A stretch of 64,000 bases of DNA, from the IMG/VR virus record IMGVR_UViG_3300045988_160012; one strand, given 5' to 3'. This document shows positions 1 to 60,248 of this stretch, one piece after another. The first letter of the stretch is position 1; each line of letters begins with the position of its first letter. The DNA comes from a virus. The notes under the pieces were generated by a model. The model saw only the letters and a program-made list of their open reading frames with translations. It searched no databases and was not told the DNA's origin. Both the position numbers and the translations under genes were made by a program.

Positions 1-204
1 GTTATTCTTTATCAGAATGTGCTTATCAGAGTTTTTGTTCCTCATAAAATTCGTATTTTATGTGTAAATCAAGACCCTTGAAAGCCCTTAAAACAAGGTA
101 TTTCTCCAATTATCAAAAACTGCTGCCAATAGCCCTTTTAAGCCTGTAATAGCCTATAATAGCCTGTTTTAAGCCTATATTAACAAAAAAGACCCTGTAA
201 CCAT

Positions 205-12011: not shown

Positions 12012-12039
12012 TTCACCTCATAAAATCTGGATTTTATGT

Positions 12040-19144: not shown

Positions 19145-19211
19145 ACACTTTTCGTGTTTTGCCTATATCTTACCATACTATTATATAGATGTCAAGTAGT
19201 TTTATGTAGTT

Positions 19212-21593
19212 TTAAATCCAAGGTAATTCTTCTGTATCTTCCTCTGTACCGTCTATCTCTGGTTTTTTCTTTTCACTTTTTTCTAATGCCATATATTCTT
19301 CTTCTGGCATTGTAAGCAACAACTCTTGCATATGAGTATGTCTTGTTAAATTTGCTTTCTTTTTGACCGCCTGATTGATGCTGTTTAAAGCTCCTAAATG
19401 ATAACAACCTTCTTTCATTCGTGTTAATCCCACATAGAGCAAATTACTATTTAGCATATAAATATGGCTCTGAGGTGTACATAAAATCACGATTTTAATG
19501 GACGAACCCTGACTCTTATGGATTGTAATTGAGTATCCCAGACTTATCATCTGCATATCTGCACGATAATATTTTACGAATACACCATCAAATTCAATGA
19601 TACAGTAAGATTTATAAATTTCTCTTACAATACCAGTTTCGCCATTGGCAATAAAAGCAGTTGGTACATCTTCTGAAGCAGAATACATATCCTTTTCCCA
19701 TTCGCTAAGATGTTGTAAATCAAGTTCTGCTTTATAGTTGTTGACTTTCTGAATTACCAAATCGCCTTCAAAATAAGTAGTGTCACCAACTTTCATAAAT
19801 ACTTCGCTTCCATAATTCGGATTTGCTACTTTCTGAATCATATTATTAAGAACTATAGTACCACAATCACCTACATTTTTTGCAGTCAACACCTGTATAT
19901 CATCAATACTATATCCTTTTTCTAAAAGCTTTTTATACAACCCTACAACATTTTGGGGAATAACTTCAGATGGAAGGTCAACAAATGTATAGTCTTTGTT
20001 ATCTCCAAAAGTAGTCATTTTAGACTTCATAGAACTTGTTAAATATGGCTCACAAAATCTAACATCTGTAGCCACTTTCATTAAGCCCCCTTCACCATAT
20101 CTAAATACCTTTGTTAATGTGGTTGTTGGAATTAATTTAGTTTCCATAAAGTCATGCAGTAAGTTACCACATGATACTGAAGGCAACTGAGCATTATCGC
20201 CAATAAGCAATAATTTGGTAGTGTTAAAATCAACCGCATCAATTACTCTTTTAAATAACTGAATATCTACCATTGAAAACTCATCAATAATTACAATATC
20301 GCACATAATCTTATGTTCCTGATTATATCCCCATCCCATTGGAGTATAACCTAAACCTCTATGAATTGTAGTGGCATTTTCTTTTGTATAATCCGCAAGT
20401 ACCTTTGCAGCCTTTCCTGTTGGGGAAAAGAGTCTAAATGTCTTATGATGGTCTTTAAGCATATTTATTACTGCCTGTGTACTAAAACTCTTACCAGTAC
20501 CACCAGCACCATTTAAAATGCTGATTGGGTATTTACATACATTTGCGACAGCTCCCATCTGCTCATCAGAAAGTGTTGAACCATTAACTGTTCTATATTT
20601 TTCAATATCACAATCCCACTCATCTTTCTTTGTATGCAACACATATAATATTGTCTGAGCAATCTTATGTTCAAGATTATATGTTCTACTTAAAGCCACA
20701 TCCATTGTATCTTTGTTATAATGAATTTCATCTGCTTTTACCGCAGTTACAAAATGATTGGCACAAGCTGGTACTAATTTCATCATTTCAGCCCTTAAAT
20801 CTGCCAGATTCATTTTTGTATGACCATTATTCTCATTCTCTTCCAACATATAAAGTAAACATGACAAGCATCGTTCTGGACTGGTTCTAAGGTCACTCTT
20901 AAATTCTATAATAGGCTTTTTACCTTTTTCAATATTGGCTTTTGATGCCTTTTCCATATCCAATAAAATACCATCTGCTGTTTTAAATCCGACACCAGCT
21001 AACCCACACAAACATTTGTATGGGTCTTGTGCCAATTTTTCTTTCAACTTTTCGATAGAAGTATATTTTGCATAAATCTTTTTAATCATTGAAAGGTTGA
21101 GAAATCCCTGAAATTCAACAACCAAATCTGCCAAGCAAAAGTTCTCAATGATTTTTCTTTTAATTACTCCAAATGTATATTCTTTAATACCTTTAAGTTT
21201 ATTAAAATCAATATCATCTAAACGATTTTCTTTTACTCTCTGAACAATATCAGGATAATTCTCATAAAGAACTTTTGCCTGATTTGGTGTTAAAATCTCA
21301 CTAAGAAAAAGGTACATATCCTCTTCAGTAGTTGGAACATCTCTTTTAATATTCAACACCTTGTAACTCATTCCATATTTGCCTAGCTGCTCAACAGCAC
21401 TAATTTCATAGGTAACTCCTACAGTTAATTCATGCAGTTCTCCAAGTATCGTCACATTATTGTACTTATTCTTCTTTATGTCTGGATACTTTTTACTATC
21501 CACATCTAACGCAAAAATACGAAAATCAGGGGTATCATAAGTACATCTAACTACTTTTCCAGAGAACTTATATTCTTTTTCTTCTTTACTCAT
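19212..21593 (-). CDS. RecD-like SF1 DNA helicase
   Basis: Walker A NGAGGTGKSF, Walker B IIDEFSM and a C-terminal SF1 region (LTRMKEG). Confidence 0.75.
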   Translation of the reverse strand: MSKEEKEYKFSGKVVRCTYDTPDFRIFALDVDSKKYPDIKKNKYNNVTILGELHELTVGVTYEISAVEQLGKYGMSYKVLNIKRDVPTTEEDMYLFLSEILTPNQAKVLYENYPDIVQRVKENRLDDIDFNKLKGIKEYTFGVIKRKIIENFCLADLVVEFQGFLNLSMIKKIYAKYTSIEKLKEKLAQDPYKCLCGLAGVGFKTADGILLDMEKASKANIEKGKKPIIEFKSDLRTSPERCLSCLLYMLEENENNGHTKMNLADLRAEMMKLVPACANHFVTAVKADEIHYNKDTMDVALSRTYNLEHKIAQTILYVLHTKKDEWDCDIEKYRTVNGSTLSDEQMGAVANVCKYPISILNGAGGTGKSFSTQAVINMLKDHHKTFRLFSPTGKAAKVLADYTKENATTIHRGLGYTPMGWGYNQEHKIMCDIVIIDEFSMVDIQLFKRVIDAVDFNTTKLLLIGDNAQLPSVSCGNLLHDFMETKLIPTTTLTKVFRYGEGGLMKVATDVRFCEPYLTSSMKSKMTTFGDNKDYTFVDLPSEVIPQNVVGLYKKLLEKGYSIDDIQVLTAKNVGDCGTIVLNNMIQKVANPNYGSEVFMKVGDTTYFEGDLVIQKVNNYKAELDLQHLSEWEKDMYSASEDVPTAFIANGETGIVREIYKSYCIIEFDGVFVKYYRADMQMISLGYSITIHKSQGSSIKIVILCTPQSHIYMLNSNLLYVGLTRMKEGCYHLGALNSINQAVKKKANLTRHTHMQELLLTMPEEEYMALEKSEKKKPEIDGTEEDTEELPWI

Positions 21594-24600: not shown

Positions 24601-25211
24601 ACCTCTAAGAAGCATCTATGCTTATTTTTCACCATCCATTTAACCAATGTCTGAAAAGCTTCTCTTCTTTCAGCGGTATCCCATTTATTTAATGGTGATG
24701 CTAAACAGGCAGAGGTAATAATAACATTATCACTTGTACCCATAAGTTCTTTCAAAGAAATTCTTGGATTATGATACATATGTCTATCGCTTTTATCTTC
24801 AAGTTTACCTTTTAAGGTAGATACTGAAAGTAATTTATTGATTTCAAGAACTCCATCCCAGTTCCTTGCATACAATCCAATATGACCACCTCTATCATCG
24901 TCCTGTAGCTCAGTACACAAATACATTTCAACACCATGAATATATTTGATACCAGCTTTATCACATTCCTGTTTTTTCTTTATCCAGTCGTAGCAATTTC
25001 CATGTTCTGAAAAGGCTAATGCCTTCATGTTTTGCTTCTTTGCAAGTTTGATATATTCTTTAAACTTAGAACAGGAATCTGCATATCCATTTGCATTAGA
25101 ATAATCACTGTGTAGATGATAAACTGTGTAATTGTCATAGTTGAGAACATTGTATGGAATTGTTTTTTGTGTTACATTATCCATTACATTTCCTCCACTC
25201 AAAATGCACAT
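21630..25211 (-). CDS. dnaE: DNA polymerase III alpha subunit (PHP + polymerase core)
   Basis: PHP-domain motifs YHLHSDYSNA and FSEHGN; the palm GTGRGSVCGSMIAFITNITDVDP (cf. DnaE GxGRGSxxGS); ~1190 aa uninterrupted. Confidence 0.9.
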   Translation of the reverse strand: MCILSGGNVMDNVTQKTIPYNVLNYDNYTVYHLHSDYSNANGYADSCSKFKEYIKLAKKQNMKALAFSEHGNCYDWIKKKQECDKAGIKYIHGVEMYLCTELQDDDRGGHIGLYARNWDGVLEINKLLSVSTLKGKLEDKSDRHMYHNPRISLKELMGTSDNVIITSACLASPLNKWDTAERREAFQTLVKWMVKNKHRCFLEVQYHNCENQKIYNKKMYFYSKKTGIPLIAGTDTHSSSPYKAECRKILQKYKDSFYGEEDEFDLTWKTYEELIAAFKAQNCLPEEVYMEAIRNTNVLADMVEEFTLDKAFKYPTLYGDNVREQWKQLIYTNFDEKCRNGKLKLPSKILKECNEYFSEHPITPTDESEREIYENYKENLEWANTHTDAEIIEQYKKKIIEEFKVMCKLGMESFMMFMSELISWAKDNDIPCGTGRGSVCGSMIAFITNITDVDPMVWNTVFSRFCNEDRISLGDIDVDFAGEDREKVYAYIIKRFTPEKTAYIAAFSTLQDRGCIDVLAGGLGYKDLDKVMEIKNKFDEYFSRYSKIVQEEVNTEELVENGETETGSISFDNHKVYMLHIAQEKQRKQLDVIKKSYDKLIAENQDLFYYLNGLKDTIVAKGTHPSGIIGSPITLADNIGLFYKDGDSEMPVSICAMKAVDSLNYVKFDILGLKTVGIIKDACKYAGIPYPKSYELNWNDPKVWHNMITAQQGVFQFEGDYAFSLLKDFKPNTINHMSMVNAALRPSGKSYRDRMIAGEHNDNPSKEIDDLLASNNGYLIFQEDTIKFLTDICGFTGSAADTTRRAIGKKDKELLKQQLPKILEGYCSHSSQPRVKAEAEAKQFVQIVQDSSEYQFGYNHSTAYSMNGYECVWLRTYYTIEFVAAYLNRAENKDDTNYGIELARMNDIKIKPIQFGKSMDEYAIERETNSIYKGIASIKYCNSIIAKELLEVSKQKKYTSFIDLLDDIAKTSVNNRQLNILTGLDFFSEFGKNKKLLQIIKLYNGIKMKPEGAKSPKTILPSLRTCSQIKKDKLESYAEYGLTEYLVKKYAGKETAKQYSQIDNVGLLNEMANRIADESMSIMEQVRFEKEYLEYVTYVNPKMADYYYIVVDYKTYKDETKPYMTLRNIKTGEETKTRIKQSKIYKQQPFGEFSILKIEGFTMDFKKKLINGQWTSTDEQEPILEEYEVIKKQ

Positions 25212-25277
25212 AAAATTTGGTTTTTATGGGGAAATGAGAGCCTTAATTTAAAGCTTTTTACATCTCCCCATTTTGCA

Positions 25278-32488: not shown

Positions 32489-32914
32489 TTATTTTAAATA
32501 AAAATTTGCTACGTGTTCTACCAATTCTCGCATTGAATCACATATACGTGTACTACACTCTACCAACCAAGGATGTAATTTATTACCGTCCTTATTTAAT
32601 GCAATAACAGGTATATGATATTCTTTGGCTATCATCAACTCCATAGCAGTACCAATACTTTTAGGGTTATTAAAATTAACCACCACTAAATCTGCTTTTC
32701 TAAGCCATGCCAATTCAAACTCCATAGCTTCTCTTTCAGATTTATGTTCTGTTGTTGCTGGAGAATAATATTCTGGTGGGCTAAAAAATATTGGCTTTTT
32801 GATAATATCATAATCACCATATAATAATGCATCTTTAACTTGATTTCTCCATTTTAGCTGTTCTTCTAATGTATAGCCAGACATTCCACCAGCCATATAA
32901 ATACGCACATCCAT
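32489..32914 (-). CDS. nucleoside 2-deoxyribosyltransferase-like (Rossmann) protein
   Basis: IYMAGGMSG ... E..W...ADLVVV pattern. Confidence 0.4.
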   Translation of the reverse strand: MDVRIYMAGGMSGYTLEEQLKWRNQVKDALLYGDYDIIKKPIFFSPPEYYSPATTEHKSEREAMEFELAWLRKADLVVVNFNNPKSIGTAMELMIAKEYHIPVIALNKDGNKLHPWLVECSTRICDSMRELVEHVANFYLK

Positions 32915-33510
32915 TACATATCACCTCTCATTTGTTGATAAAATGGTACTGTCATAAGCTCTGCACGAATTTCATCATACATTTTATGAAGTCTAGGATT
33001 TACCCAACGCATCCACTCTTTACGATTATCCTTAACCATATATTCTCTAACCTGAGTAGCGGAAATTGGGATTCTTCCTCTATTAACAATTAACTGAGAC
33101 ATATCTATAATGTCCTCTGCTGCAAACCATCTGGTTCTTTCTTCATCATTTCCAGAAATCATTAATTCTGGAACTTTATAAATATATCTATCAGCATTTC
33201 CGAGAAGATATTTACCCCAATCTGGTGTAATATCATTTTCATTTGTCAAATCTGCTAATCCATATATCATAATATTTGAATTGTCACCATAGATTTCTTT
33301 GAGCATTTTGGTTCTGGTATTGATATTCAAAGGATTTCGTTCTGTGCCACATTCTTGAGCAGAACCAATCAAAATCAATACTCTATCACAAAGTTCTAAT
33401 CCTGTTTTAACCAATGATTCATGTCCTTTGTGAAAAGTCTGAAATCTACCACAAATCATTCCAACATCATATGGTTTCATATTTCCTCCTTTAGATAACA
33501 TATTATCCAA
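32914..33510 (-). CDS. nadM: nicotinamide/nicotinate mononucleotide adenylyltransferase (NadM/NMNAT-like)
   Basis: GMICGRFQTFHKGH matches the (H/T)xGH cytidylyltransferase motif as found in NadR/NadM NMNATs. Confidence 0.7.
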   Translation of the reverse strand: MDNMLSKGGNMKPYDVGMICGRFQTFHKGHESLVKTGLELCDRVLILIGSAQECGTERNPLNINTRTKMLKEIYGDNSNIMIYGLADLTNENDITPDWGKYLLGNADRYIYKVPELMISGNDEERTRWFAAEDIIDMSQLIVNRGRIPISATQVREYMVKDNRKEWMRWVNPRLHKMYDEIRAELMTVPFYQQMRGDM

Positions 33511-39020: not shown

Positions 39021-40169
39021 TTACTCTATTAATAATTGAATCTGCTTCTGCATTTCATGTATAACCTTATCAGTTATATCTGTTGTAATATTGTCTGGTA
39101 GAGTAATTCTTAACGACTTTACTGCTTCTTCATCAGACAATCCTATAGCTTTCAATACATGAGATGGCACTGAGGAATGTGAATTACAAGCTGAACCAGC
39201 GGATACATATATATCACACAAATCCAACAAGTATATCATTGCTTCCCCCATTACATTTTGATTAAAAGTAATATTGATATTATTGGGAAGTCTGTCAGTA
39301 TATTGACCATTAAGCTTGCAACCAATTTTATCTAACAATTCACCAATCATATAGTCTCTTTGTTTTATTGTTGTAAGATATTTTTTCTGTTTCATATCTA
39401 CAGAACATAATTCAACTGCTTTAGCAAATCCCATTATATAAGGAAGGTTCTCTGTTCCACCTCTTAATCCATTCATTTGACTACCGTAAATCAACGGACT
39501 GATTTTTACATCTTCTTTTTTATATAAGATACCAATTCCTTTTGGTGTACCAATCTTATGTCCACTGGCACTCAACATATCAATTTTAGATGCCTTCACA
39601 TCAATTGGAATATGACCAAAAGCTTGTACTGCATCAGTATGAAATATTGCTCCATATTTATGTACAGTTAAAGCAATATCGTGAATATGTTGAATTGTTC
39701 CAATTTCATTATTTGCATATTGAATAGACACTAAAATATCTTCTCCACTTTTCTGTGAAATCACATATTTTAAAGTATCTTCTAAAGCTCTTAAATCAAT
39801 ACAACCGTTTGTATCAACATCTATAAAGTGAACATCAACCCCAATACCATCCACACATGACAATATAGATTTATGTTCGATTACAGAAGTTATAACTGAA
39901 GGTATTCTACCCTTTCTCAAACGATTTTGTACAAAGCCCTGTATCGCCCAACAATTACTTTCGCTTCCACAACTGGTAAAATATACTTCATACATTTCTG
40001 AATTAAGGAAGTGTGCTACTGTTTCTTTTGCAGATTTTAATGCATTAGCAGCTTCTTGAGCTGGACTATATAAAGATGATGGATTATACCACATATCCAT
40101 ATAAGAATAAATTGTATCTAAAACCTCTTTCTTTGGTTTAGTTGTTGCTGCTTCATCCAGATATATCAC
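39021..40169 (-). CDS. cysteine desulfurase (class V aminotransferase, IscS/NifS/DndA-like)
   Basis: MIYLDEAATTKP start; PLP-lysine region SASGHKIGTPKGIGILY; active-site Cys region SAGSACNSH. Confidence 0.8.
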   Translation of the reverse strand: MIYLDEAATTKPKKEVLDTIYSYMDMWYNPSSLYSPAQEAANALKSAKETVAHFLNSEMYEVYFTSCGSESNCWAIQGFVQNRLRKGRIPSVITSVIEHKSILSCVDGIGVDVHFIDVDTNGCIDLRALEDTLKYVISQKSGEDILVSIQYANNEIGTIQHIHDIALTVHKYGAIFHTDAVQAFGHIPIDVKASKIDMLSASGHKIGTPKGIGILYKKEDVKISPLIYGSQMNGLRGGTENLPYIMGFAKAVELCSVDMKQKKYLTTIKQRDYMIGELLDKIGCKLNGQYTDRLPNNINITFNQNVMGEAMIYLLDLCDIYVSAGSACNSHSSVPSHVLKAIGLSDEEAVKSLRITLPDNITTDITDKVIHEMQKQIQLLIE

Positions 40170-43190: not shown

Positions 43191-44090
43191 CTATTCAATC
43201 TTTACACCAATAAACTCAAGCACTTCTTTTAACCCCAACCCACCTTCTGACATAGGCTTCATACAATATTGCCATAATTTTGGATGAGTGATTTTTAGGC
43301 TTTGAAATCTATTCGGTTCTTTTTCAAGGTGACATCCATACATACAAAAGACGCATCCTGTTCTGTTACACTTTGTTGTCTGCCATTTTCCTTTATCATC
43401 CTGTATAATCTCTCCATATACAGGAGCATAAGGTAAATTATATTTCTTAATATATTCAAGAATATCTTGCTCTGTCCAAAATGATAGTGGTTGAGAAGTT
43501 GGTCGTTTTGTATCAAAAGCATTACATCCATGTACTTTCCATGCAGTTTTTCTTGCCTGACTCTCACAAGCCATAGTGCCGATTATTGGATGATTACCTG
43601 TTTCTTTTTCATATTTCTTTGCTGGCTTCTTTTTCATAACATTGCAACATTTATTACTAATAAGAAATGGAGCTTCTAATAAGAATTTCCATTTTTCACA
43701 ATTATAAATGCTTTTATTTCCATTCTTATCCAGCAATTCTCCATTTAATCTTTTTATCCGATATGTATATTTTCCTGTTGTTTCATGCCTTCTAGCTTCC
43801 TCAATAACCTGAGAGATTTCTTTACTTACAATCGGATAACCATATGTTTGAATTACTGTTTTGAAATTCATTTCAGGTCTTACCCATGTAACATTTTCAA
43901 CCGATTTTACAAACTCTCTCAACTCTGGATATTCAAGTCCTGTATCAACAAACACCGCTGGTGTATCTGGATAAAGCTTTCTAACCAAATGCAATAAAAC
44001 TGTGCTGTCCTTTCCTCCCGAAAAGGAAACATAAATTTGATTGTAAAAAGGAGTAAAGTTAATGGGTAAACAACCTAAAAGTAAGTTCAC
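43191..44090 (-). CDS. PAPS-reductase/DndC-like PP-loop ATP pyrophosphatase (body of gene; native 5' end currently inverted)
   Basis: YVSFSGGKDSTVLLHL (SGGxDS PP-loop) and a C-terminal Cys cluster CNRTGCVFCMYGC. The annotated start is a GTG with no RBS. Confidence 0.65.
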   Translation of the reverse strand: MNLLLGCLPINFTPFYNQIYVSFSGGKDSTVLLHLVRKLYPDTPAVFVDTGLEYPELREFVKSVENVTWVRPEMNFKTVIQTYGYPIVSKEISQVIEEARRHETTGKYTYRIKRLNGELLDKNGNKSIYNCEKWKFLLEAPFLISNKCCNVMKKKPAKKYEKETGNHPIIGTMACESQARKTAWKVHGCNAFDTKRPTSQPLSFWTEQDILEYIKKYNLPYAPVYGEIIQDDKGKWQTTKCNRTGCVFCMYGCHLEKEPNRFQSLKITHPKLWQYCMKPMSEGGLGLKEVLEFIGVKIE

Positions 44091-44200
44091 AAATGATGAT
44101 TTAAAAGTTATGCAAAGCTGGGATTTAGACCGTAAAATTGCAACTTCTCTTACAAGAATCGCTGAATTTTATGCCAAATATCCGCATAAAATTTATGTTT
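44027..44200. other. invertible DNA segment (12-bp perfect IRs aaacataaattt / aaatttatgttt) carrying RBS+ATG+45 N-terminal codons of the PP-loop gene in reverse orientation
   Basis: Plus-strand ORF AAAGGAG-N8-ATG (44062) encodes MGKQPKSKFTNDDLKVMQSWDLDRKIATSLTRIAEFYAKYPHKIYV. Inverting 44039-44188 joins it in frame to ...SFSGGKDSTVLL on the minus strand. Confidence 0.6.
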
Positions 44201-44264
44201 TAAGTGTTGTTAGATACAATATATAGTGTATTTATTTATATACTTATCCATATATTGTATTGCT

Positions 44265-48108: not shown

Positions 48109-49022
48109 TTACATAGATTTAAGGTTTTTTAGAATCCATGCTATAACATCTACCGTCCAACCATTTCCACACAATTCCACTCTTTTTGAAGCAGATTTTA
48201 CACATTCAGTAAAACCATCTGGTAGTGTCTGCAATCTTTCAGCTTCAATAGGGTGTATTTTTCTAAATGAATATTCACCAAGATAAATATTATTTTTGTC
48301 ATTACCAGAAGAAGGCAGCGTATTCATCTTGATAGTATTATATCTGGCTCTATTTTGTTGTGAATAATTTCCTTTTCCGCTTGTATCCCAACTAACAATA
48401 GTGTTATTCCTATTGAATCTAATTGTATCTTTGTATTTCTCAAAGCTTTTAATATCATGTTTACATGAATACTCAATATCTTTAATAACTTTATCAGAAT
48501 GTGGATACTCTTTTGAAAATGGTATATTAGTCCAATACAACCTTTTTCGCATTTGAGCAGAAAACTCCATTGAATTTATTTCAACAGGTTCGACCTGTAA
48601 TCTTTTGGAAATTTCATTTTGAATATCTTTAGATATTGAAGAGTTGTTTTCATACAAAAAATACTTGCAATGACTTTCATTCAATGCCCTTACAAACTGC
48701 ATAAACAACTTGAATCCCATGCCATCACAAGTAACCTCTCTATCTGCTCCTCCTCTTGCAATACTCCAGTATGTACATGGACTTCCACCAATCAGCAAAT
48801 CAAATCCCTGATATTGCGTGAAATCACCTTCAAATACATCTCCTAAATATTCATCAGATGGATAATTATATTTCGCTACAGCATTGGCAGCTTCTTCTAT
48901 TTCATACGACACGTATCTCTCTACTGGAATACCAGCTCTTTCTAAAGCAACTCTTCCGCATGATATTCCGTTGAATAAACTTAATACTGTAATCCCTTTA
49001 TCTGGAATTACTCTTTTATGTT
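48109..49022 (-). CDS. dcm: C5-cytosine DNA methyltransferase lacking its start codon in the current orientation
   Basis: Motif IV GGSPCTYWS and ENN motif inside the annotated 48109..48912 ORF (GTG start). The frame stays open upstream to 49022, encoding motif I VLSLFNGISCGRVALERAGI, with no start codon before a TAG. Confidence 0.8.
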
Positions 49023-49145
49023 GGGTGGCTACCTTATTTTAAATACTTTGTAGTATTCATTTATTCAGCCACCCAACATTTTTACATTATTCTCAAACGA
49101 AAGGAGCTTATTTTTATGCTTTTTGAACCTCATAAAAGAGTAATT
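49006..49145. other. invertible DNA segment (15-bp perfect IRs aattactcttttatg / cataaaagagtaatt) carrying RBS+ATG+first codons (MLFEP-HKRVI) of the C5-MTase in reverse orientation; contains nested 11-bp IR gttgggtggct/agccacccaac
   Basis: Plus-strand AAAGGAG (49100) -N9- ATG (49116) CTT TTT GAA CCT CAT AAA AGA GTA ATT. Inverting 49021-49130 yields MLFEPHKRVIPDKGITVLSLFNGISCG... in frame on the minus strand. Confidence 0.65.
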
Positions 49146-49192
49146 TTATGTGTACTCAAAGTCCTTATTTTAAAGCTTTAAAAGGTATAACC

Positions 49193-50027: not shown

Positions 50028-50786
50028 TTAAATTGCAACAGGTAAATCATTCGGTGTATAGACTGGCATTGGTTTCAGCTTAAAAATATTCTTCTTATGC
50101 ATAGAGTCAATCTTATGTTTGATATTTTCATCTTCACATTCACCTGTTCTGATATATCTGTTAAGTGTTGCATATGAAAATCCCAGATTATCTTCATCTG
50201 TAAGTCCACACAAACCATCAATCGGAACTTTTCTTGTCAACTCTTTAGGTAATCCAAGATACTCTCCAATAGCAATTACTTCATCGGTTGTAAGCAGAGA
50301 TAACGGACTAAAATCACCAGCTCCATCACCGTAACGTGTAGCGTATCCCACCCAATCTTCACTAAGATTACAAGTATTTGCCACTCTGCCATTTAAAGTC
50401 TGTGCAATAGCATATAATGTAGCCATTCTAATTCTTGCTGGAAGATTGGTACTTGTCTGCATACTCCAATGGTCGCACAACTGAGGTTTGATTTCATGTT
50501 TCAATGATTTAATTGCTCCATGAATGTCTACCGTATAGTTTTCAATACCAAGATGGTCAACAAGTTTGTATGCCATATCAATATCTGACTGTTCACCATT
50601 TGGCATAAGAACACCAATCACTCTATCTTTTCCCAGAGCTGCTACACATAATGCAGCAACTACGCTTGAATCTTTGCCACCTGAAATACCTACTACAGCA
50701 TCACAACCATTTCCATTAAGTGAAAACCAGTCCTGAATCCATGCGATAATTTCTTTTGTTGTCTTTTCTACATTAAACTTATACAT
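50028..50786 (-). CDS. nadE: NH3-dependent NAD+ synthetase
   Basis: PP-loop VVGISGGKDSSVVAAL and NadE-like length and pattern. Confidence 0.8.
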   Translation of the reverse strand: MYKFNVEKTTKEIIAWIQDWFSLNGNGCDAVVGISGGKDSSVVAALCVAALGKDRVIGVLMPNGEQSDIDMAYKLVDHLGIENYTVDIHGAIKSLKHEIKPQLCDHWSMQTSTNLPARIRMATLYAIAQTLNGRVANTCNLSEDWVGYATRYGDGAGDFSPLSLLTTDEVIAIGEYLGLPKELTRKVPIDGLCGLTDEDNLGFSYATLNRYIRTGECEDENIKHKIDSMHKKNIFKLKPMPVYTPNDLPVAI

Positions 50787-50846
50787 TCTGTACTTTCCTT
50801 TCTATTCAATTTGAGGTGGACTTTCATCCACCTCACCAACAATTGC

Positions 50847-51374
50847 TTAACCTAAATCATATCTCCAAATTTCTACATCTACAGAAGATTTACCAAACAC
50901 ATCCTGAATAATTTTATACACATCATTCCAATCTGCACCACCTCTATAGCTTCCAATTCGATATGGCATAGCAACTGTCGCTCCAATCTTCTCAGCTTTC
51001 TCACGAACATCCAAGAAAGCCATTTTCATTGCAGTTAAATCAGTCTGCTGCTCATCCATACCAAAATTCTTCTGACCAAAAAGATTAACAATATACTGAT
51101 ACTTAGAATCATATGCTTCAACATTTTCATTCTTCATAGTATCAACCATTACCATAGCCCATGTATCAACTGGAACATACTGAACTGTTCCAAGCATTTC
51201 AATTTTATTTTTATTGCAATGCTTCACATATTTAACATATGCCTTTTCAACATGAGGGTATCTGTCAGCTACCTGTGCTGCTACACCGCTTCCCATAACA
51301 CCTAAACAATTTGTCTGGTGTACAATAAAATTTGCATCTGAATCAAAAAGATTTCCATTGATGTTCTTAATCAT
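50847..51374 (-). CDS. macrodomain protein (ADP-ribose binding/processing)
   Basis: MIKNINGNLFD...FIVHQTNCLGVMGSGVAAQV matches the macro-domain signature. The start is probably the internal Met at 51374, not the annotated 51431. Confidence 0.7.
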   Translation of the reverse strand: MIKNINGNLFDSDANFIVHQTNCLGVMGSGVAAQVADRYPHVEKAYVKYVKHCNKNKIEMLGTVQYVPVDTWAMVMVDTMKNENVEAYDSKYQYIVNLFGQKNFGMDEQQTDLTAMKMAFLDVREKAEKIGATVAMPYRIGSYRGGADWNDVYKIIQDVFGKSSVDVEIWRYDLG

Positions 51375-51387
51375 CTTTATCCCTTTC

Positions 51388-51638
51388 TTAGAATCCTTTA
51401 CTTTCTGCATGGATGCTATTTCTGATTTCATTTAATGTCTGGTTACGAACAACCTTACCATTAAGGAATACAGTCTCAAGCATATTAATATCAGACTCTT
51501 TCACATCATCTGTTACAACCTGACCCTTTTGGATTCCATCAATATATTTGATTTCTCCATCTTTGTTACGATATACTCTGACCATACCCTTCTGAGATTT
51601 CTTAACACCATCACCTGTTTTCGGGTCTTTTTGAACAA
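51388..51638 (-). pseudogene. nadV: 3' fragment (~83 codons) of the NAMPT/NadV-like gene, separated from its body by the IS insertion
   Basis: The frame is open from the IS boundary: VVQKDPKTGDGVKKSQKGMVRV...NMLETVFLNGKVVRNQTLNEIRNS. This matches the conserved NAMPT C-terminus (..VFKDP...KKG..L.HTVFKNGKV...DEIRKNA). Confidence 0.7.
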
Positions 51639-51920
51639 CCCCGCCCGACGGGTCGGACGAGGATTCCGTTGCAGCCGTCAGGATTTCTCACATTGGGATG
51701 CATTGGAACCGCGATTTAGTCCAGAGTTACGCTTTTCCTAACTTCGCCGACATCTTGCGGTGCTTTGTAAGTCAGGAACAGGATTGCCCTAGTGCCGTCC
51801 GTCCACCCCCACATTGTATCATACGATTGATACACATCCAGAAAGTGGTGACAAAAGGGCAAGATTTACAGTTACAATTCTATATTGTTTTCGGGTTACC
51901 TTGATTAAAAAGTTTATAGA
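51639..51920 (-). ncRNA. putative omegaRNA/reRNA scaffold of TnpB (3' end of tnpB through right-end hairpin)
   Basis: GC-rich, structure-rich non-coding stretch between the tnpB stop and the IS end. Its position matches the established location of TnpB guide RNAs. Confidence 0.35.
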
Positions 51921-53666
51921 TTACTCAAATACTGGCATATACCGTATTTTCATTTCAGCGGCTAAAGTTCTTAAACTTGGTCGCTTTCTTTCTTCTAGCA
52001 CCTCATACGGAATGCTTCGGTAGAAGAAATGTTTTCGAATACCTGAAAATGTATTTGTGATCCTTGCCCAGATATTCTTGTAGGTTTCTTGTGAAAACTC
52101 TGGTACAGTACCTTCTTTTGTTTTCAGAAGATTTAGCATCCGCGAGTCTGGTACCAGTTTCTCATACAAACCGAGACCTACCAGACCAATCGTATATGCC
52201 GCAGCTTGATGAATGGAAATTCCATACTTTCGCATGAACAGAAACTTTCCCATTTGACTGGTATAGGCCGGATCAATCTTGCAAAAGGCAATTTCTCGTT
52301 TTAAGCTCTGATTTTCGATGCTTGATGCAATCCTCTGATAAGCAAATAAGGTCATATGATGATTTCCTTTTCGATTTCCGTATTTTCTGGATGCCAGTTT
52401 GATCGTCAAATCAATGTCTTCCACAATGAGACGTTTATCCTTTTCTGCACACCAATCAAATATATCCTTCACTGCTGCTCCCAAAATATTTGTAACCTGA
52501 CCAGTAGATTTGTTCATAAGGTCAAATCGAATTAACTTCTGGTCAAGCAGTTTTCCGGTTTCATCCAGTTCTGCCAATGCAAAATGATCATAATTAATAT
52601 CCATAGAAATTGCACCATTTCCGTAATAACTGTTTTCATATGCTTTTAGCTTCATAGTAACGGAGATGATCAGATACTGCTTATTTTCCTTATCACGCTT
52701 CAAAATGAAATTGTAGCAAAGTGACTGTCGATCTTCTGGCTTGCAGGTAAAGTTTTTCTGAAAACTTTCTTCGTTTCTTGGAAGCTTAAAATCATGAAAG
52801 ATCGTAACAGAACCATCTATGCAGGTAACAGACAGATCTTTCCCATCATATTTACACAGGAAGTTTCCATACTTTGACGTATGTCTGCCCGGAAGTGACA
52901 TACTCTGGTGGCGCTTTTCAAAAAACTCTTGTCTCCATTTATTAGATGCCTTTTTCGAAGTTTTCTGGTCCTTATCATTTGATGAATCATCGGATTTTGT
53001 AACTTCAACTACATCTTTCTCAGAATACAACTTCTTTCCACCAAACACAATCCGCTCTGGTGGAAGTTTTTCAAGGTTCTCCAGTTTCTTCGCTTTGCGT
53101 TTTCTTGCTTCTGTTACCAAAGCCAAACGTGTCTTTAACTTACGAATATCAGCTTCAACCTTACGCTCATACTCATCCAGATTCACCATCATCTTATTAA
53201 ACAAAATGATCTTAAATCCTCTAACCTTCGACTGGCATTTCGGATATGGTTTAATCCATTTTTTTGTTTTTATATAGAGACGAATGGAGTTTTTAATTGC
53301 TCTCTTTTTATCCAACTCTTCTTTCACAGACTGAATCTTTTCATCACGATTCTTTAAATCTGCAGCGATTGTCGTTTTATAATACTTTTTTAGTTCCTTT
53401 TGTGAAGAAATCTGTCCAGAAGCTGCTGTATAGATTGCTGCATTATAATAATCATTGGTTTTGTATTTTTCTTTCAAAAAGACAGGATAGGCATGGTCAA
53501 GTAACGGCCCTGCATTTAAATATTTCTGATCATAGAGTGCATTGTACAGATCCATTTTGGCATCATTAAATACACGCATCGTCTCTAGAAGCGATGCGGC
53601 ATTTTCAATGGTTTTCTTATCTAAATAGTAACGCTTATCCGAATTGATTGTCCTTGATAGTTCCAT
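51921..53666 (-). CDS. tnpB: TnpB-like RuvC nuclease (OrfB_IS605 family), atypical long form
   Basis: RuvC-I ISMDINYDHFA, RuvC-II RLIVEDIDL, and the hallmark IDPAYTSQ. Probable ATG start at 53666 with RBS CCGAGGT (the track start at 53705 is a TTG). No CxxC...CxxC zinc finger after PAYTSQ. Confidence 0.6.
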   Translation of the reverse strand: MELSRTINSDKRYYLDKKTIENAASLLETMRVFNDAKMDLYNALYDQKYLNAGPLLDHAYPVFLKEKYKTNDYYNAAIYTAASGQISSQKELKKYYKTTIAADLKNRDEKIQSVKEELDKKRAIKNSIRLYIKTKKWIKPYPKCQSKVRGFKIILFNKMMVNLDEYERKVEADIRKLKTRLALVTEARKRKAKKLENLEKLPPERIVFGGKKLYSEKDVVEVTKSDDSSNDKDQKTSKKASNKWRQEFFEKRHQSMSLPGRHTSKYGNFLCKYDGKDLSVTCIDGSVTIFHDFKLPRNEESFQKNFTCKPEDRQSLCYNFILKRDKENKQYLIISVTMKLKAYENSYYGNGAISMDINYDHFALAELDETGKLLDQKLIRFDLMNKSTGQVTNILGAAVKDIFDWCAEKDKRLIVEDIDLTIKLASRKYGNRKGNHHMTLFAYQRIASSIENQSLKREIAFCKIDPAYTSQMGKFLFMRKYGISIHQAAAYTIGLVGLGLYEKLVPDSRMLNLLKTKEGTVPEFSQETYKNIWARITNTFSGIRKHFFYRSIPYEVLEERKRPSLRTLAAEMKIRYMPVFE

Positions 53667-53699
53667 GCAAATTACCTCGGTTGAAAAATAGGTTAACTG

Positions 53700-53755
53700 T
53701 TGCAATATCTCTTTAAATATGCTATTATTATAGCATATTTAAAGAGATATTGCAA
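53700..53755. promoter_or_regulatory. perfect 26-bp-arm palindrome (TTGCAATATCTCTTTAAATATGCTAT tatt ATAGCATATTTAAAGAGATATTGCAA) between divergent tnpB and tnpA
   Basis: Read directly; sits in the divergent promoter/operator position. Confidence 0.7.
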
Positions 53756-53786
53756 GTATCGATTGTAAAATGAACGGAGGTTTCTT

Positions 53787-54236
53787 ATGGACGATTTAAA
53801 CAGAAAACGACATGCCGTTTACAAACTCACTTATCATGCAGTGTTTGTTATTAAATATCGCAGAAGGGTAATGACAGAACCCATCATTACACACATGAGA
53901 CAGTATGCTACTCATCTGATTGAACAGTGTTATCAGGGAAAGCTTCTCGAACTAAATGGAGAACCCGATCACATCCATATCCTGTTTGAACTTCCTGCAA
54001 CAGCAGCTCCATCCGTTGTTGTGTGCAGTCTTAAGACCCAACTTTCAAAAGAAGTTCGAGCAAAATTTTGGGATAAGATCAAAGATAAGCTCTGGAAGGA
54101 TAGCTTCTGGTCAGACAGTTATTTCATTACCACTACCGGAGGCGCAAACATTGAAACACTAGAAAGATATATCCAAGACCAAGGGATTGAAAAACCAAAA
54201 CGAAAATATACCAAAAGACAAGCAAAGAAAATGTGA
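53787..54236 (+). CDS. tnpA: IS200-type HuH Y1 transposase
   Basis: HuH motif DHIHILF; catalytic Tyr region FWSDSYFITTTGG; RBS GGAGG. Confidence 0.85.
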   Translation: MDDLNRKRHAVYKLTYHAVFVIKYRRRVMTEPIITHMRQYATHLIEQCYQGKLLELNGEPDHIHILFELPATAAPSVVVCSLKTQLSKEVRAKFWDKIKDKLWKDSFWSDSYFITTTGGANIETLERYIQDQGIEKPKRKYTKRQAKKM

Positions 54237-54293
54237 AAATACCATTGCACTTGATATTGATTTATTTTTTATGCCGCATTCATCCCCGCCCGA

Positions 54294-55838
54294 CTATGTC
54301 GGACGAGGTTTTCTGCGGAGAACTGGATAAACCAAAATAGGTTTACCATTGATTTCAGCATATGTAGCTTTATAAGCCCAGCCCTGTGTATCTCTTGTGT
54401 TATACTGGAAACTGTAAGAACCAGCACCAAATACTACATTTTCAACTGCATAGCCAAGGTTAGTCATATGATTACAAATGCTTTCACATCTTTCAAGTGT
54501 AATAGCATCTCCGTACACCATTCCAATATGAGAGTCTAATACTTTATACCCCTTAGAGTTTATAGTTCCACCGAAAATCTCCCAAAGAATATCCAGTGTT
54601 CCTCTCTCTTCAATAGTGGCATCACGATATGTGAATGTGTCGTTCTCACCATCATTAGACCATGTAGCAATATATTTCTTATTTCCAATCTCAAGGTAAA
54701 TTGGAACAAGCTGTCCAGACGTATCTGTTTCATTGCAATAAAGTGACTGCATCATCGGACTTCTGGTATAGTAAGATTCAAATGCTTCTTTACTTTCATG
54801 GGCTTTCCACATTGGGGCAATACCACAAATAATCTCTTCTGGGTCACCGCTGTCAGGTCTAATATTGATTCTGCCTGTATGATTAAGAATTACATCCTTA
54901 TTTTTTCTAACAATATTGTCAACAAAATTCCAGTAATCATAACTGTCTGCCACAAAGCTGAAAGGTTTATTTGGATAAAGCTCTTTACACATTCTTACAA
55001 AAAATGTTTCTTCATCTCCATCTACTGCATAATTGCTTGTAGTACAAGAATGTTCAACAGATGCAGACCAGCTTCCAACATCCTCATTTTCAACATCAGC
55101 TCCATAGTAATCACAAAGATACTGAATTGAAGGGATTGTAGATGTTTTATCGAAGCTTGTTAAAAATGCAGCTCCGCTTGTAATAGCAGCATCAAGACTA
55201 GCCATACCTCTAAAAGAAAAATCGCCACAACCAACTCTCTTCCAATTCGGATTGTCAGATGTTAAAACAATATATTTTTCAATAATCTTTCTGTAAATAT
55301 AAGCTCTTGTTGCTGTTGTTGTAGGTAACCATAAATTACAAGAAAATAATGTCTCAAGATAATTTGTTACCCATGCAAAATCAGGATGTGTATTTTCGAC
55401 TGTACAACAAGGTACTCTATATGGTACTTTTGTACCTTCTGGCAAAGCCTTAATCTCAATCGGGAGATAGCCAAGTTTATGAAGTGCTTCAATATGTTCT
55501 GTATGAGCATTTTCATCAAATGTATTATGGATATACAACTTATACTCATTAAGCACTTCGTCTAACGGTCTATCAAAGAAATATTCATTAAACTGTTTTA
55601 CCAAATATTCCTTAATAAATCCCTGTAATCCAAACCAGATTACAAATTTGCTCTGAGGAAAGAATTTGTTACTACGTGGTGTCCAAGTGGAATACATCAT
55701 TGTCATTCCATCTGGATACATAGCCCGATGTGCAATTTTATAAAAATCGCATAATAACATCATATTCTTCATTTTACTTATCCTCCTTACAATGGCATCC
55801 ACAACCGCAATCACATACGTTCTCAGCATAATCAACAT
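54294..55838 (-). CDS. nadV: nicotinamide phosphoribosyltransferase-like (NAMPT/NadV or Namat) body; C-terminus truncated by IS (last ~7 codons read into IS hairpin)
   Basis: NAMPT-like length and architecture. The C-terminus ...GKPILVYPVLRRKPRPT* ends inside the IS end. Its native continuation is found at 51638-51388. Confidence 0.7.
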   Translation of the reverse strand: MLIMLRTYVIAVVDAIVRRISKMKNMMLLCDFYKIAHRAMYPDGMTMMYSTWTPRSNKFFPQSKFVIWFGLQGFIKEYLVKQFNEYFFDRPLDEVLNEYKLYIHNTFDENAHTEHIEALHKLGYLPIEIKALPEGTKVPYRVPCCTVENTHPDFAWVTNYLETLFSCNLWLPTTTATRAYIYRKIIEKYIVLTSDNPNWKRVGCGDFSFRGMASLDAAITSGAAFLTSFDKTSTIPSIQYLCDYYGADVENEDVGSWSASVEHSCTTSNYAVDGDEETFFVRMCKELYPNKPFSFVADSYDYWNFVDNIVRKNKDVILNHTGRINIRPDSGDPEEIICGIAPMWKAHESKEAFESYYTRSPMMQSLYCNETDTSGQLVPIYLEIGNKKYIATWSNDGENDTFTYRDATIEERGTLDILWEIFGGTINSKGYKVLDSHIGMVYGDAITLERCESICNHMTNLGYAVENVVFGAGSYSFQYNTRDTQGWAYKATYAEINGKPILVYPVLRRKPRPT

Positions 55839-56709
55839 TCATAGCAAACACAGTTACATTTTCATCACTTTTAAAAGGATAAATGCTATCTGTTGTGAAT
55901 ACATGGTCAATCAGCTTTCTGTGCTGAGTTGTTCCGAAAATACTTTTCTTTTCATAGTCCACTGTAAGAAGATTCATTTTATCGTCACCAAACTGACCAT
56001 CATAAATACTCTTTTCACAATGAGAAACAAACAGATAAATGTTTCTTGCCCCCATCTCTTTCAATTTCTTTGCTGCATAATAGAAAGTTCCACCCTTACT
56101 ACAAATATCATCACGAATAAGAATATCTTTTCCTTTAATATCTTCAGGTTTAATTCCCATGACATCTAATCCAAGAATCCGACCTGTTCCCCATTCTCTT
56201 TTCTTAACACCAAATGCATACGGAATCTTAATCCCTTTAGAATATCTCTTCATAGCCCCCTCATCAGGGAAAAACATAATCGGTGCAATACCATCGTGAA
56301 TCAACATATCAAGCACGTTGCTCACAAAAATATTAGTATTGATTACATTGCAATTCTTGATAGTTGCTGCTACAACACTTGAATGTGGGTCAACTACAAA
56401 TACTCTGTCAAAATTCAGAGAATTAATCATTTCTGCAAAATACTTCATAGCAAAAATATCATTTGGCTCTTCGATTCTGTCCATTCTTGCGTTAGGTACA
56501 TATGGAAGGAAAAGAGATACATTCATTCCATGTGCCTGATAGAATTTTGTTAAGAATGAAACTGCTACAAACTCAGCATCATCCTCATAATTCCAAGTAA
56601 TAACAACTGTTTCTCCCTGTAAGCTAACATCACCTTTTACATTTGCTGTTCCATCAGGAAATCTCTTTACTTCAACTTCTTTTCCATTTACTCTAATCAT
56701 AATCTTCAC
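55774..56709 (-). CDS. prs: ribose-phosphate pyrophosphokinase-like (Prs; or ADPR-PP synthetase Adps of NARP1-type pathways)
   Basis: VKRFPDGTANV...; LPYVPNARMDR; PRPP-binding loop LIRDDICSKGGT. Confidence 0.7.
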   Translation of the reverse strand: MKIMIRVNGKEVEVKRFPDGTANVKGDVSLQGETVVITWNYEDDAEFVAVSFLTKFYQAHGMNVSLFLPYVPNARMDRIEEPNDIFAMKYFAEMINSLNFDRVFVVDPHSSVVAATIKNCNVINTNIFVSNVLDMLIHDGIAPIMFFPDEGAMKRYSKGIKIPYAFGVKKREWGTGRILGLDVMGIKPEDIKGKDILIRDDICSKGGTFYYAAKKLKEMGARNIYLFVSHCEKSIYDGQFGDDKMNLLTVDYEKKSIFGTTQHRKLIDHVFTTDSIYPFKSDENVTVFAMNVDYAENVCDCGCGCHCKEDK

Positions 56710-56751
56710 CTTTCTTTTTAGATGTATAACCTTAATAATTATAACCGTTAT

Positions 56752-57387
56752 TTAGTTTTCATTTGCCTGTGTGGATTCATCTGTATCTGCCTTTGCTTCC
56801 GTTGTTTCTGTAGATTCTGAATTTTCTCCATAATGTCTACCAATTACATCAACCTGACAACTTGCCATTGTTCTGAGAGCTGCATTATGAGCTTTAATAC
56901 TTGTACCAGCACAACAATGACTATCAACCTTAATTACCGTATTTGGCATAGCAGTTCTTAAACCAATGGCATTTGCTACAACACAAATATCTGTGCATAC
57001 TCCGCAAAGTTCGATTTCATCACTACTACTACACACCTGAGAAAGAATTGCAATCAAATCCTTGCTTGCAAATGTATTTTTATCAACTACACCTACATAC
57101 TTTTTCTGTTTGCGAAGCATCTGAACAGCTTCCCAAACATCCTTGTTGATACTTTCTCCACCAGATTTTTTAATACAATGCGGTACAGGAAGTTTCTTGC
57201 CTTCAAGAGTATCCAGATAATTGTCATAATGAATATCTCTTGTCAGATAAATAGAATCATAATCCTTTCCGTATTTCTTCAGCTTTTTTACAAGCTTTGG
57301 CACAATGGCTTTTGTCTCGTCATTTCCTAACGCACCATCAATAAAGTCATTCTGCACATCCACTACAACCAAAATCTTTTTGTTCAT
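56752..57387 (-). CDS. pncA: isochorismatase-family hydrolase, nicotinamidase (PncA)-like
   Basis: VVDVQNDF N-terminal motif; catalytic Cys region ELCGVCTDICVVANAIG. Confidence 0.6.
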   Translation of the reverse strand: MNKKILVVVDVQNDFIDGALGNDETKAIVPKLVKKLKKYGKDYDSIYLTRDIHYDNYLDTLEGKKLPVPHCIKKSGGESINKDVWEAVQMLRKQKKYVGVVDKNTFASKDLIAILSQVCSSSDEIELCGVCTDICVVANAIGLRTAMPNTVIKVDSHCCAGTSIKAHNAALRTMASCQVDVIGRHYGENSESTETTEAKADTDESTQANEN

Positions 57388-59243: not shown

Positions 59244-59612
59244 TTTGATTCCTCCTTATTATTTAACCTTTAATATAATGTATAACCTTAACAGTTATAT
59301 CTTTAAAAGAAAGCTTTTTGAATCTCTCTTAACTTGTATTCAGTATAGCACATTGCTTACTACTTGTCAACAACTATTTTAAAGTTTTTATCACTTATTT
59401 ATGTTGTTGTTACCGTCTTTCAATACATCATAGCACACAGAAATACGGAATTTTTACACATAAAACTAATATTTTATGTGTTAGTGAATATGAAATGCCA
59501 CCTGATTTTAAGTGTGTTTGGGAAAAGCAAGTAACATCCAGCTTAAAAGTTCATGAGCATATAGCCCGAACAGAAAAGCTTTTTATGTTGCATCCAGATA
59601 AATTACATACAT

Positions 59613-60248
59613 TTAAAGGGTGTTAATAGATACGTTGAAGCATAAAATATTAGTTTCTGCCACTTTTCTACACCAATCATAGAACTGTTCATAGTCAAAT
59701 TCACCTGTAGAATACTTTGTAACCCCTTTATATGGTGGGTCACAATAGATTAAAGTACCAGATAATGTATTCATATCAATATCCAGATAATTTTTACTGG
59801 TCAATTTAACATCTTGAATAAGCGGAACTTGTCTCATAATATTCCTTATTGCTTCATTTGGAATATCTCTAGGGGTTACACCATCTGCTTTAAATCCTCT
59901 GGCATAACCACCAAAGTATTTTGAACCAAATGTACTACAGAATCCAACCAATCCAACATAATAATCAGGATAATTCTCTTTGTTTAATCTGACAGAATTA
60001 TATTCATCTTCTGATATTGTTGATGGTGGTATCCAGCCTTCCTGAAGTTTTTTCAATAAAGCAATCAGTTCTTTATGAATGTCATTACCCACACGAACCT
60101 TACAATGAATTTTATCCATCATGTTCAATCCACCGCAGAATGGTTCGTAGTAGATACTGACATTATTATCATCAATTAGTGATTGTAATATTGGTGCAAT
60201 TTGTTTTGATACCTTATTTTTGCTTCCAACGTACTTAATAACAATCAC
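59613..60248 (-). CDS. dam: DNA N6-adenine methyltransferase (Dam family)
   Basis: KYVGSKNK (cf. KWAGGK), motif I YYEPFCGGLNMM and motif IV CDPPY. Start codon uncertain (GTG/ATT adjacent to AAGGAG). Confidence 0.7.
   Translation of the reverse strand: MIVIKYVGSKNKVSKQIAPILQSLIDDNNVSIYYEPFCGGLNMMDKIHCKVRVGNDIHKELIALLKKLQEGWIPPSTISEDEYNSVRLNKENYPDYYVGLVGFCSTFGSKYFGGYARGFKADGVTPRDIPNEAIRNIMRQVPLIQDVKLTSKNYLDIDMNTLSGTLIYCDPPYKGVTKYSTGEFDYEQFYDWCRKVAETNILCFNVSINTL

Follow-up and report, generated by a model that had tools for sequence, protein, structure and literature searches.

A putative set of small DNA-inversion switches at DNA-modification genes of an uncultured gut phage

How could a methyltransferase gene be expressed whose start codon lies on the opposite strand? 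This question is raised by a C5-cytosine DNA methyltransferase gene in the 64,000-nucleotide stretch of viral DNA analysed here (IMG/VR record IMGVR_UViG_3300045988_160012; the whole stretch is referred to as the window). The minus-strand gene body is startless, and a ribosome-binding site (RBS), an ATG and first codons sit on the plus strand between two inverted repeats. An earlier note, made from the sequence alone, had proposed that this element, denoted S1, is an inversion switch that is OFF in the window. We consider it probable, at roughly 0.8, that S1 is a programmed and reversible DNA-inversion switch, one of a set carried by this phage and flipped by a site-specific recombinase, and that this explains the locus as a whole.

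Anatomy and natural states of switch S1

A repeat search of the window recovered the S1 arms as a perfect 15-nt inverted repeat with a spacing of 110 nt, as the earlier note had described (Table 1). The window contains three perfect inverted repeats that are 15 nt or longer and enclose a loop of 20–400 nt, where a Markov shuffle would give 0.07 on average. The minus-strand frame translates as ...I*NKVATQHKRVIPDKGITVLSLFNGISCGRVALERAGIPVERYVSYEIEE..., which places motif I upstream of the GTG at 48912, in agreement with the proposal that the methyltransferase frame is open beyond this codon and has no start; both LFNGISCG (motif I, FxGxG) and GGSPC (PC motif) are read in it, and not a single ATG, GTG or TTG lies between the in-frame stop and motif I. 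That stop is the TAA entered in Table 1 and not a TAG at 49031, as had been stated. On the plus strand, hence on the wrong strand as previously noted, AAAGGAG is followed after 9 nt by ATG CTT TTT GAA CCT CAT AAA AGA GTA ATT, and ATGCTTTTTGAACCTCATAAAAGAGTAATT translates as MLFEPHKRVI. The OFF open reading frame (ORF) matches PF00145 (2.3e-22) beginning only at profile position 26; against the PHROG profile, the reconstructed ON protein covers positions 202–490 and the OFF form 234–490, a gain of 28 bits. At the sequence level, the orientation of S1 sets whether an RBS, an ATG and five codons are joined to the methyltransferase.

The ON protein predicted from the inverted segment was built and used as a search query. 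Its best match (P0001), a protein of 308 amino acids (aa), aligns with 100% of the query at 99% identity and starts with MLFEPHKRVIPDKGITVLSLFNG, the start foreseen for the intact gene; on its contig (L001) the 110-bp segment lies the opposite way round, and the RBS, the ATG and MLFEP lead directly into HKRVIPDKG. A gapped pattern of both S1 arms yielded 11 further loci from IMG/VR and metagenome collections, and ten more were obtained by look-up of one ON protein. The 308-aa ON protein (MLFEPHKRVIPDKG...) is encoded on 13 contigs. Counted as distinct S1 contigs from different samples, 13 are ON (those with the reversed segment in Table 1) and approximately ten are OFF. In the 90%-identity cluster of P0001, the 15 members listed account for at least 28 contigs with 308-aa ON forms and at least 60 with the OFF-typical calls of 267, 278 and 292 aa. 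The methyltransferase bodies form two sublineages, 6–9 residues apart, and each contains both ON and OFF forms: one OFF protein (P0122) is identical to an ON protein (P0132) across 266 residues, and the window's own OFF protein (P0121) differs from the ON protein P0123 at one residue. Furthermore, the same two arrangements recur in ENA, Logan, JGI and IMG/VR assemblies. The idea of a shufflon with several recombination outcomes found no support, as 24 contigs displayed two arrangements only and the inner repeat was never inverted alone.

The repeats themselves are kept in step. In a relative with 81% protein identity (L003), the switch is OFF and its repeat has changed to AATTATTGTTTTAT / ATAAAACAATAATT, compared with AATTACTCTTTTATG in the window; the two arms, one coding and one non-coding, were altered in concert, and inversion of the segment would yield MDFPHKTIIPVEGITVLSLFNG. 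The inner repeat nested in S1 is likewise present, although with 13 nt (49018–49030 / 49067–49079) rather than the 11 bp first reported, and it overlaps the outer repeat by 3 nt only (ATG) instead of sharing its first 13 bp. Its stems read GTTGGGTGGCT/AGCCACCCAAC in the window and GCTGGGCGATT/AATCACCCAGC in a relative (L002), and L003 has an unrelated 16-bp stem, so that the inner repeat appears to be a hairpin maintained through compensatory changes. Its suggested role as a terminator in one orientation went unconfirmed, a simple terminator scan being negative owing to the 36-nt loop. The surroundings of S1 were also scanned in either orientation for sigma-70 promoters and, under strict criteria, for terminators, and neither was detected.

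Megablast of the S1 locus against GenBank phages gave zero matches, as did a search of IMG/VR with the exact S1 junction 35-mer, and the more distant methyltransferase homologues (at most 63% identity, L017–L025) have ordinary ATG starts and no repeats. Separately, a 9428-bp contig encodes a protein (P0005) in which the C-terminal part of NAD synthase is fused to the methyltransferase from ...RGGADREV onward, representing either a natural deletion of a sigma-factor gene plus S1 or a chimeric assembly.

Further switches and a common dyad site

Two other loci of the window, S4 and S5, are built in a similar way. S4 sits at the 3' end of a D12-class, Dam-type N6-adenine methyltransferase gene (59613..60248, minus strand), whose product ends in ...ETNILC-FNVSINTL* in the window and, with the segment flipped, in ...ETNILC-VSEYEMPPDFKCVWEKQVTSSLKVHEHIARTEKLFMLHPDKLHTFKGC* as a protein of 251 aa. 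The ON orientation was found in contig IMGVR_UViG_3300045988_142724 and the OFF orientation in the other contigs, including the window; the segment is mostly assembled OFF. Pfam did not distinguish the ON and OFF forms, and a sequence search of the PDB with the Dam C-terminus was uninformative; coverage of the PHROG profile, used in its place, extends over positions 64–323 for ON and 64–273 for OFF (a gain of 13 bits). When four DNA variants of this segment are compared, 6 bases vary and 5 of these fall at third codon positions of the ON frame, which shows selection on that frame.

S5 straddles the start of a PAPS-reductase-family gene (43191..44090, minus strand). It is ON in L002, where the protein begins MNKQPKNKF..., and ON coverage of the PHROG profile (139–367) exceeds OFF coverage (162–367) by 11 bits. 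The S5 repeat (AAACATAAATTT in the window, ...GATTT in L011 and ...TATTT in L002) has one variable position, which matches in both arms: ...ATAAATTT in the window, ...ATAGATTT in L011 and ...ATATATTT in L002. A cysteine desulfurase gene (39021–40169), 4 kb from S5, hints at DNA sulfur modification. Switch states combine independently: contig 142724 is C5 OFF, Dam ON and PAPS OFF, L010 is C5 ON and Dam OFF, and the window is OFF at S1, S4 and S5.

A fourth switch, S2, was found in relatives. Two contigs (L014, which is the same as L004, at 3511–4709, and L016) carry two tandem C5 methyltransferases, each with its own switch; the first is located behind S1, and the second is orthologous, at 97% identity, to the enzyme of the window, which implies that the window gene is a recombinant joining S1 to the second enzyme. 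P0019 is a further mosaic of the tandem enzymes. S2, ahead of the second enzyme, has a 14-nt repeat (TAAAATAATTTTTT) with a spacing of 116 nt and, if flipped, would yield AGGAGG-N8-TTG and MIANKKIILENGINVLSLFNG. In L014 (4643–4671), the motif TTGACA-N17-TGTAAT was seen by eye, directed toward the second methyltransferase in the orientation without RBS and start; the S2 segment may therefore also carry a promoter for downstream genes. S1, S4 and S5 share one switch design, with S2 as a fourth example in relatives.

When the switch arms were aligned from the outside inward, the non-coding sides of S1, S4 and S5 proved to have approximately 24 nt in common. The sites read TACACATAAAA-TTACTC-TTTTATG in S1, TACACATAAAA-CTAATA-TTTTATGTGT in S4 (a perfect 10-6-10 dyad) and ACACTTAAAA-CATAAA-TTTTATG in S5, and S2 fits as CTTAAAA-TAATTT-TTTTATT. 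In each, two inverted arms flank a 6-nt spacer that is equal within one switch and unequal between switches, an arrangement that is the one of tyrosine-recombinase core sites. The motif CATAAAA-N6-TTTTATG, allowing at most one mismatch, occurs six times in the window against 0.12 expected, and it was not found at the unrelated methyltransferase loci L017–L025. A scan of IMG/VR for ACATAAAA-N6-TTTTATG was unspecific, with unrelated contigs among the matches listed. Strand exchange by tyrosine recombinases requires spacer identity; the switch-specific spacers would therefore keep the switches from recombining with one another.

Three further dyads of the window stand alone (Table 1), with no partner within 700 nt or window-wide. 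They may have remained from former switches, act as operators or pair with distant sites. Two other inverted repeats are probably unconnected with the switches: an intergenic, perfect 16-bp stem with a 29-nt loop (19123–19183), probably a terminator-type hairpin, and an imperfect repeat in a helicase gene (21135–21278; 14/16, ending in ATG/CAT, spacing 112 nt), which is probably due to chance.

Table 1. Coordinates of the switches, associated gene bodies and solo dyads in the window.
Feature	Coordinates	Strand	Content	Remarks
S1 coding-side repeat arm	49006..49020		AATTACTCTTTTATG; encodes HKRVI on the minus strand	15 nt, 100% complementary
S1 invertible segment	49021..49130		110 bp; OFF orientation in the window	Found reversed in L001, L010, L011, L163-L172
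S1 RBS, start and first codons	49100..49130	+ (wrong strand)	RBS AAAGGAG 49100-49106; ATG 49116-49118; codons MLFEP	N-terminus matches P0001/P0123
S1 non-coding-side arm	49131..49150		Arm 49131-49145, CATAAAAGAGTAATT	Within full dyad site CATAAAA-GAGTAA-TTTTATG
S1 inner hairpin	49018..49079		13-bp stem, 36-nt loop, plus-strand T-run	Compensatory changes in relatives
C5-cytosine DNA methyltransferase body	48109..49020	-	Motif I at ~48950-48990; PF00145	Startless in this orientation; in-frame TAA 49039-49041
S4	59463..59656		16-nt perfect repeat 59463-59478 / 59641-59656 (AAACTAATATTTTATG) around 162 bp	OFF in the window
S4 coding end within the segment	59479-59626	+	C-terminal 48 codons plus stop codon, Dam-type methyltransferase	
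S4 dyad site	59459-59478		CATAAAA-CTAATA-TTTTATG	
D12-class N6-adenine methyltransferase body	59641..60248	-		Cut off after ...ETNILC in this orientation
S5	44027..44204		12-nt perfect repeat 44027-44038 / 44189-44200 around 150 bp	OFF in the window
S5 segment		+ (wrong strand)	AAGGAG 44048-44053; ATG 44062-44064; 47 codons of the PAPS-reductase-family gene	
S5 dyad site	44185-44204			1 mismatch
PAPS-reductase-family (PP-loop) gene body	43191..44038	-		
Solo dyad	43..62		CATAAAA-TTCGTA-TTTTATG	Flank resembles S1 segment end; spacer varies among genomes (TTCGTA, TTAGTA, TTCTCA)
Solo dyad	12019..12038		CATAAAA-TCTGGA-TTTTATG	Immediately upstream of a small minus-strand ORF
Solo dyad	25209..25228		CATAAAA-TTTGGT-TTTTATG	5' end of dnaE

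The phage and its candidate recombinase

Every gene of the window is on one strand, with a GC content of approximately 32%, and the switch-bearing contigs, of 124–138 kb, come from human gut metagenomes. The DnaE protein is 50% identical to DnaE of the Clostridioides phages LIBA6276 and LIBA2945, which are 'big plasmidial' siphophages. The source is an uncultured gut phage of approximately 130 kb, probably a plasmid-like siphophage of a low-GC Firmicute. In the whole genome of LIBA6276, the closest cultured relative, no comparable repeats beside methyltransferases and no dyad enrichment were found.

Pfam scans of the window ORFs detected no serine or tyrosine recombinase, as the earlier note had stated, the only findings being an IS200-type TnpA and a TnpB-like gene. 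That note had also suggested looking for an invertase in the rest of the genome and in the host. The phage side provided a candidate: approximately 4.6 kb beyond the right edge of the window, on a contig reached via a window-edge protein (L029, 3232–4026), lies a gene for a 264-aa protein of family PF00589 (2.4e-17; phrog_216, 1.6e-37). On the host side, GTDB genomes gave no match to the recombinase protein or to the S1 repeat pattern. Alignment to XerA placed the catalytic residues at R103, H203-x-x-R206 and H233...Y242, and the switch-carrying IMG/VR contigs themselves encode this protein with 99% identity. Its best NCBIfam matches, all sub-threshold, are to XerA (53.8 bits against a cut-off of 220), XerC (38.8 against 335), XerD and the FimB/E-type invertase subfamily (PRK09870, 30 against 221); with scores so far below the cut-offs, it is not a member of the Xer or FimB/E-type families. 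The flipping enzyme is most likely this Xer-like tyrosine recombinase of the phage itself.

The surroundings of this gene (L029 3232–6953, approximately 1.7–5.4 kb past window position 64000) include a GmrSD_N (DUF262) protein and a 317-aa, weakly recombinase-like protein. An IS200/IS605-type insertion occupies window positions 51921–54236 between the NAMPT and Macro genes, with a Y1 TnpA (53787–54236, plus strand) and a 594-aa TnpB-like ORF (51921–53705, minus strand); it is present in L029 and L031, and the NAMPT product is shorter in loci that carry it. Its enzymes were rejected as the inverting activity, the element being missing from L030 and L163–L172, which bear switches.

The window further encodes NAD-related proteins (50028–57387, 32489–33510 and 5108–5926): NAMPT, a PRPP-synthetase-like protein, NAD synthase, an NMN adenylyltransferase-like protein, Macro, isochorismatase/nicotinamidase and ADP-ribosylglycohydrolase. 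This dense set looks like an NAD-restoring counter-defence module. Beyond window position 1, the guanylate kinase gene is followed in related contigs (L035, L036 and L038) by Tn7-like TnsB/TniB/TniQ, SSB and reverse transcriptase genes. L035 and L037 additionally encode an N6_N4 methyltransferase not present in the window.

Proposed mechanism, alternatives and significance

In the mechanism that we propose, the recombinase would exchange strands within the 15-bp repeat and thereby invert the 110-bp segment. In the ON state, the RBS, the ATG and the MLFEP codons would be joined to the C5-cytosine methyltransferase body; in the OFF state of the window, the body has no start upstream of motif I, and its translation cannot yield an active enzyme. 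Inversion would act likewise on the Dam-type methyltransferase by a C-terminal swap, on the PAPS-reductase-family gene by an N-terminal swap and, in relatives, on the second C5 methyltransferase. The full dyad, (ACA)CATAAAA-N6-TTTTATG(TGT), lies on the non-coding side of each switch, its partner consisting of the spacer and one arm inside the gene, and each switch would flip independently, given that the 6-nt spacers differ between switches. The enzyme would be the 264-aa Xer-like protein. The purpose of switching is likely bet-hedging, by which progeny or lysogens would differ in DNA modification, an advantage against hosts with classical restriction or with modification-dependent restriction. 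We give about even odds to a more far-reaching version, an 'epigenetic switchboard' in which one such phage recombinase independently flips at least four spacer-insulated mini-segments, at a pair of C5 methyltransferases, a Dam-type methyltransferase and a PAPS-reductase/Dnd-like gene, and generating up to 16 DNA-modification states among the progeny of one phage or phage-plasmid lineage.

Several observations weigh against a recombinase-driven set of switches. Regarding S1, the scans around it found no promoter for the ON gene, the ON orientation places the hairpin and T-run between the upstream gene and the RBS, and synapsis would have to span a loop of only 110 bp, which is short. S5 is ON solely in one more distant relative, and S2 was seen OFF only, in four contigs. 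The coding-side arms fit the dyad consensus poorly, and the solo dyads, partnerless and just upstream of genes, mean that the dyad may serve in transcription signalling, either in addition to recombination or in its place, which is the chief reservation about the site model. The link between recombinase and sites is one of co-occurrence and site architecture only, and a second tyrosine-recombinase-like gene (317 aa, weak) is close by. Finally, mixing within a population is hinted at only by contigs that end at or within switches (the end of L012, the end of L015 at 15011–15024 and the start of L174); L015 stops at the S5 repeat, and its two last bases (TA) fit the junction of the opposite orientation, which is what a sample containing both states would produce. 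The sequences show the anatomy, the natural occurrence of both states, their recurrence, the covariation of the repeats and selection on the ON frame; the enzyme, the rate and reversibility of flipping within one population, and the purpose are inferred from them.

The alternatives differ mainly in what does the flipping. A host-encoded invertase acting on a real, reversible switch, comparable to RecV or Mpi, which act at many loci of gut bacteria, would account for a 64-kb window without a recombinase and would suit relatives that are plasmid-like prophages with long residence in their hosts; the assignment of the 264-aa protein is, moreover, indirect. We nevertheless regard it as unlikely, since the viral contigs themselves encode a small tyrosine recombinase conserved at 99% identity, this phage group is enriched in the dyad sites, which the unrelated loci L017–L025 lack, and the window contains no RecV-type site. 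A dedicated enzyme might also be dispensable: replication template-switching, or annealing and recombination proteins of the phage, which encodes an AAA_24/Sak4-like ATPase, an SSB-like protein and a PD-(D/E)XK nuclease, could produce the orientations as recurrent accidents, and the shortness of the repeats (12–16 nt) and the dissimilarity of the S2 repeat to that of S1 are in keeping with this. Such accidents, however, would not put repeats at the start or the C-terminus of three to four DNA-modification genes, hold both arms matched, produce common dyad arms with switch-specific 6-nt spacers or maintain purifying selection on inverted coding pieces, and this explanation is improbable.

It is less probable still that the OFF forms are dead ends, one-off inversions decaying into pseudogenes with no phase variation. 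OFF is indeed the commoner state of S4, S5 and S2, and the window is OFF at all three of its switches; but ON and OFF forms share identical protein bodies, each sublineage holds both, the inverted segments retain an intact RBS, ATG and frames with substitutions at third positions, and the repeats are still perfect. That an orientation merely reflects a mis-join at an inverted repeat during assembly can be practically discounted: several contigs do stop at or inside a switch, yet a mixed population would itself break contigs at these borders, repeats of 12–16 nt are below typical assembly k-mers, and the two arrangements recur in four collections produced with different assemblers. A programmed, recombinase-driven switch stays our preferred explanation, and the finding is larger than the earlier note had envisaged: it comprises a set of at least three mini-inversion switches (four in relatives) that have their dyad site in common, and a tyrosine recombinase gene of the phage is nearby.

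Bacteria are known to have gene-altering inversions, and restriction-modification genes are often affected (Milman et al. 2023, PMC9881135; Chanin et al., bioRxiv 10.1101/2023.03.11.532203). The phage switches resemble the 'partial intergenic' invertons at bacterial gene ends in having short inverted repeats with one arm in the coding sequence and the other outside, and in that inversion alters the protein or its expression, restriction-modification genes being favoured targets there. They differ in belonging to a phage genome, in acting on orphan C5 and Dam methyltransferases and a PAPS-reductase-family gene, and in removing the RBS and start, or a catalytic C-terminus, rather than exchanging specificity domains. 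With repeats of 12–16 nt, they would be missed by screens such as that of Milman et al., whose threshold is at least 22 nt (PMC9881135). The RecV switches of Clostridioides difficile (cwpV, flgB, cmrRST and pdcB) share the Firmicute setting, core sites with 6-bp spacers and the use of one small tyrosine recombinase, here a candidate enzyme, for several short switches; unlike ours, they sit in 5' untranslated regions and act on transcription. The RecV site consensus, AWAGTWNCCNTTW-N6-WAANGGNWACTWT (PMC12282940), had 0 matches in the window with up to 3 mismatches allowed. As in Type I hsdS 'epigenetic invertons' (PMC7672463) and phasevarions, a genetic switch would stochastically change DNA methylation. 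Those systems, however, are chromosomal and operate by shuffling of hsdS specificity or by repeat slippage, whereas here several unrelated viral modification genes would be subject to plain ON/OFF control.

The E. coli fim switch (FimB/FimE) and Xer/dif likewise combine short repeats with small tyrosine recombinases devoid of an arm-binding domain, and dif has dyad arms about a 6-bp spacer; the 264-aa protein nonetheless scores far under the family cut-offs (53.8 bits against 220), and fimS is a promoter-bearing element of 314 bp. In phages, the G segment of Mu and the C segment of P1 are flipped by the phage-encoded Gin and Cin, so that progeny differ. Gin and Cin are serine invertases that work with an enhancer and Fis on kilobase segments and switch tail-fibre (host-range) genes, in contrast to the 110–162-bp segments, the candidate tyrosine recombinase and the DNA-modification targets described here.

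We found no published report in the literature of an inversion switch on phage methyltransferases. Gene callers annotate the switched genes as truncated (267 for 308 aa; 168/211 for 251 aa), and the dyad site together with the small recombinase could be used as compact orthogonal inversion modules. Phage methyltransferases are usually seen as constitutive anti-restriction tools. Heritable and reversible ON/OFF control of several of them, if true, would imply that phage populations generate diversity in the modification of their own DNA, which bears on how phages meet hosts having both restriction-modification and modification-dependent (Type IV) defences.

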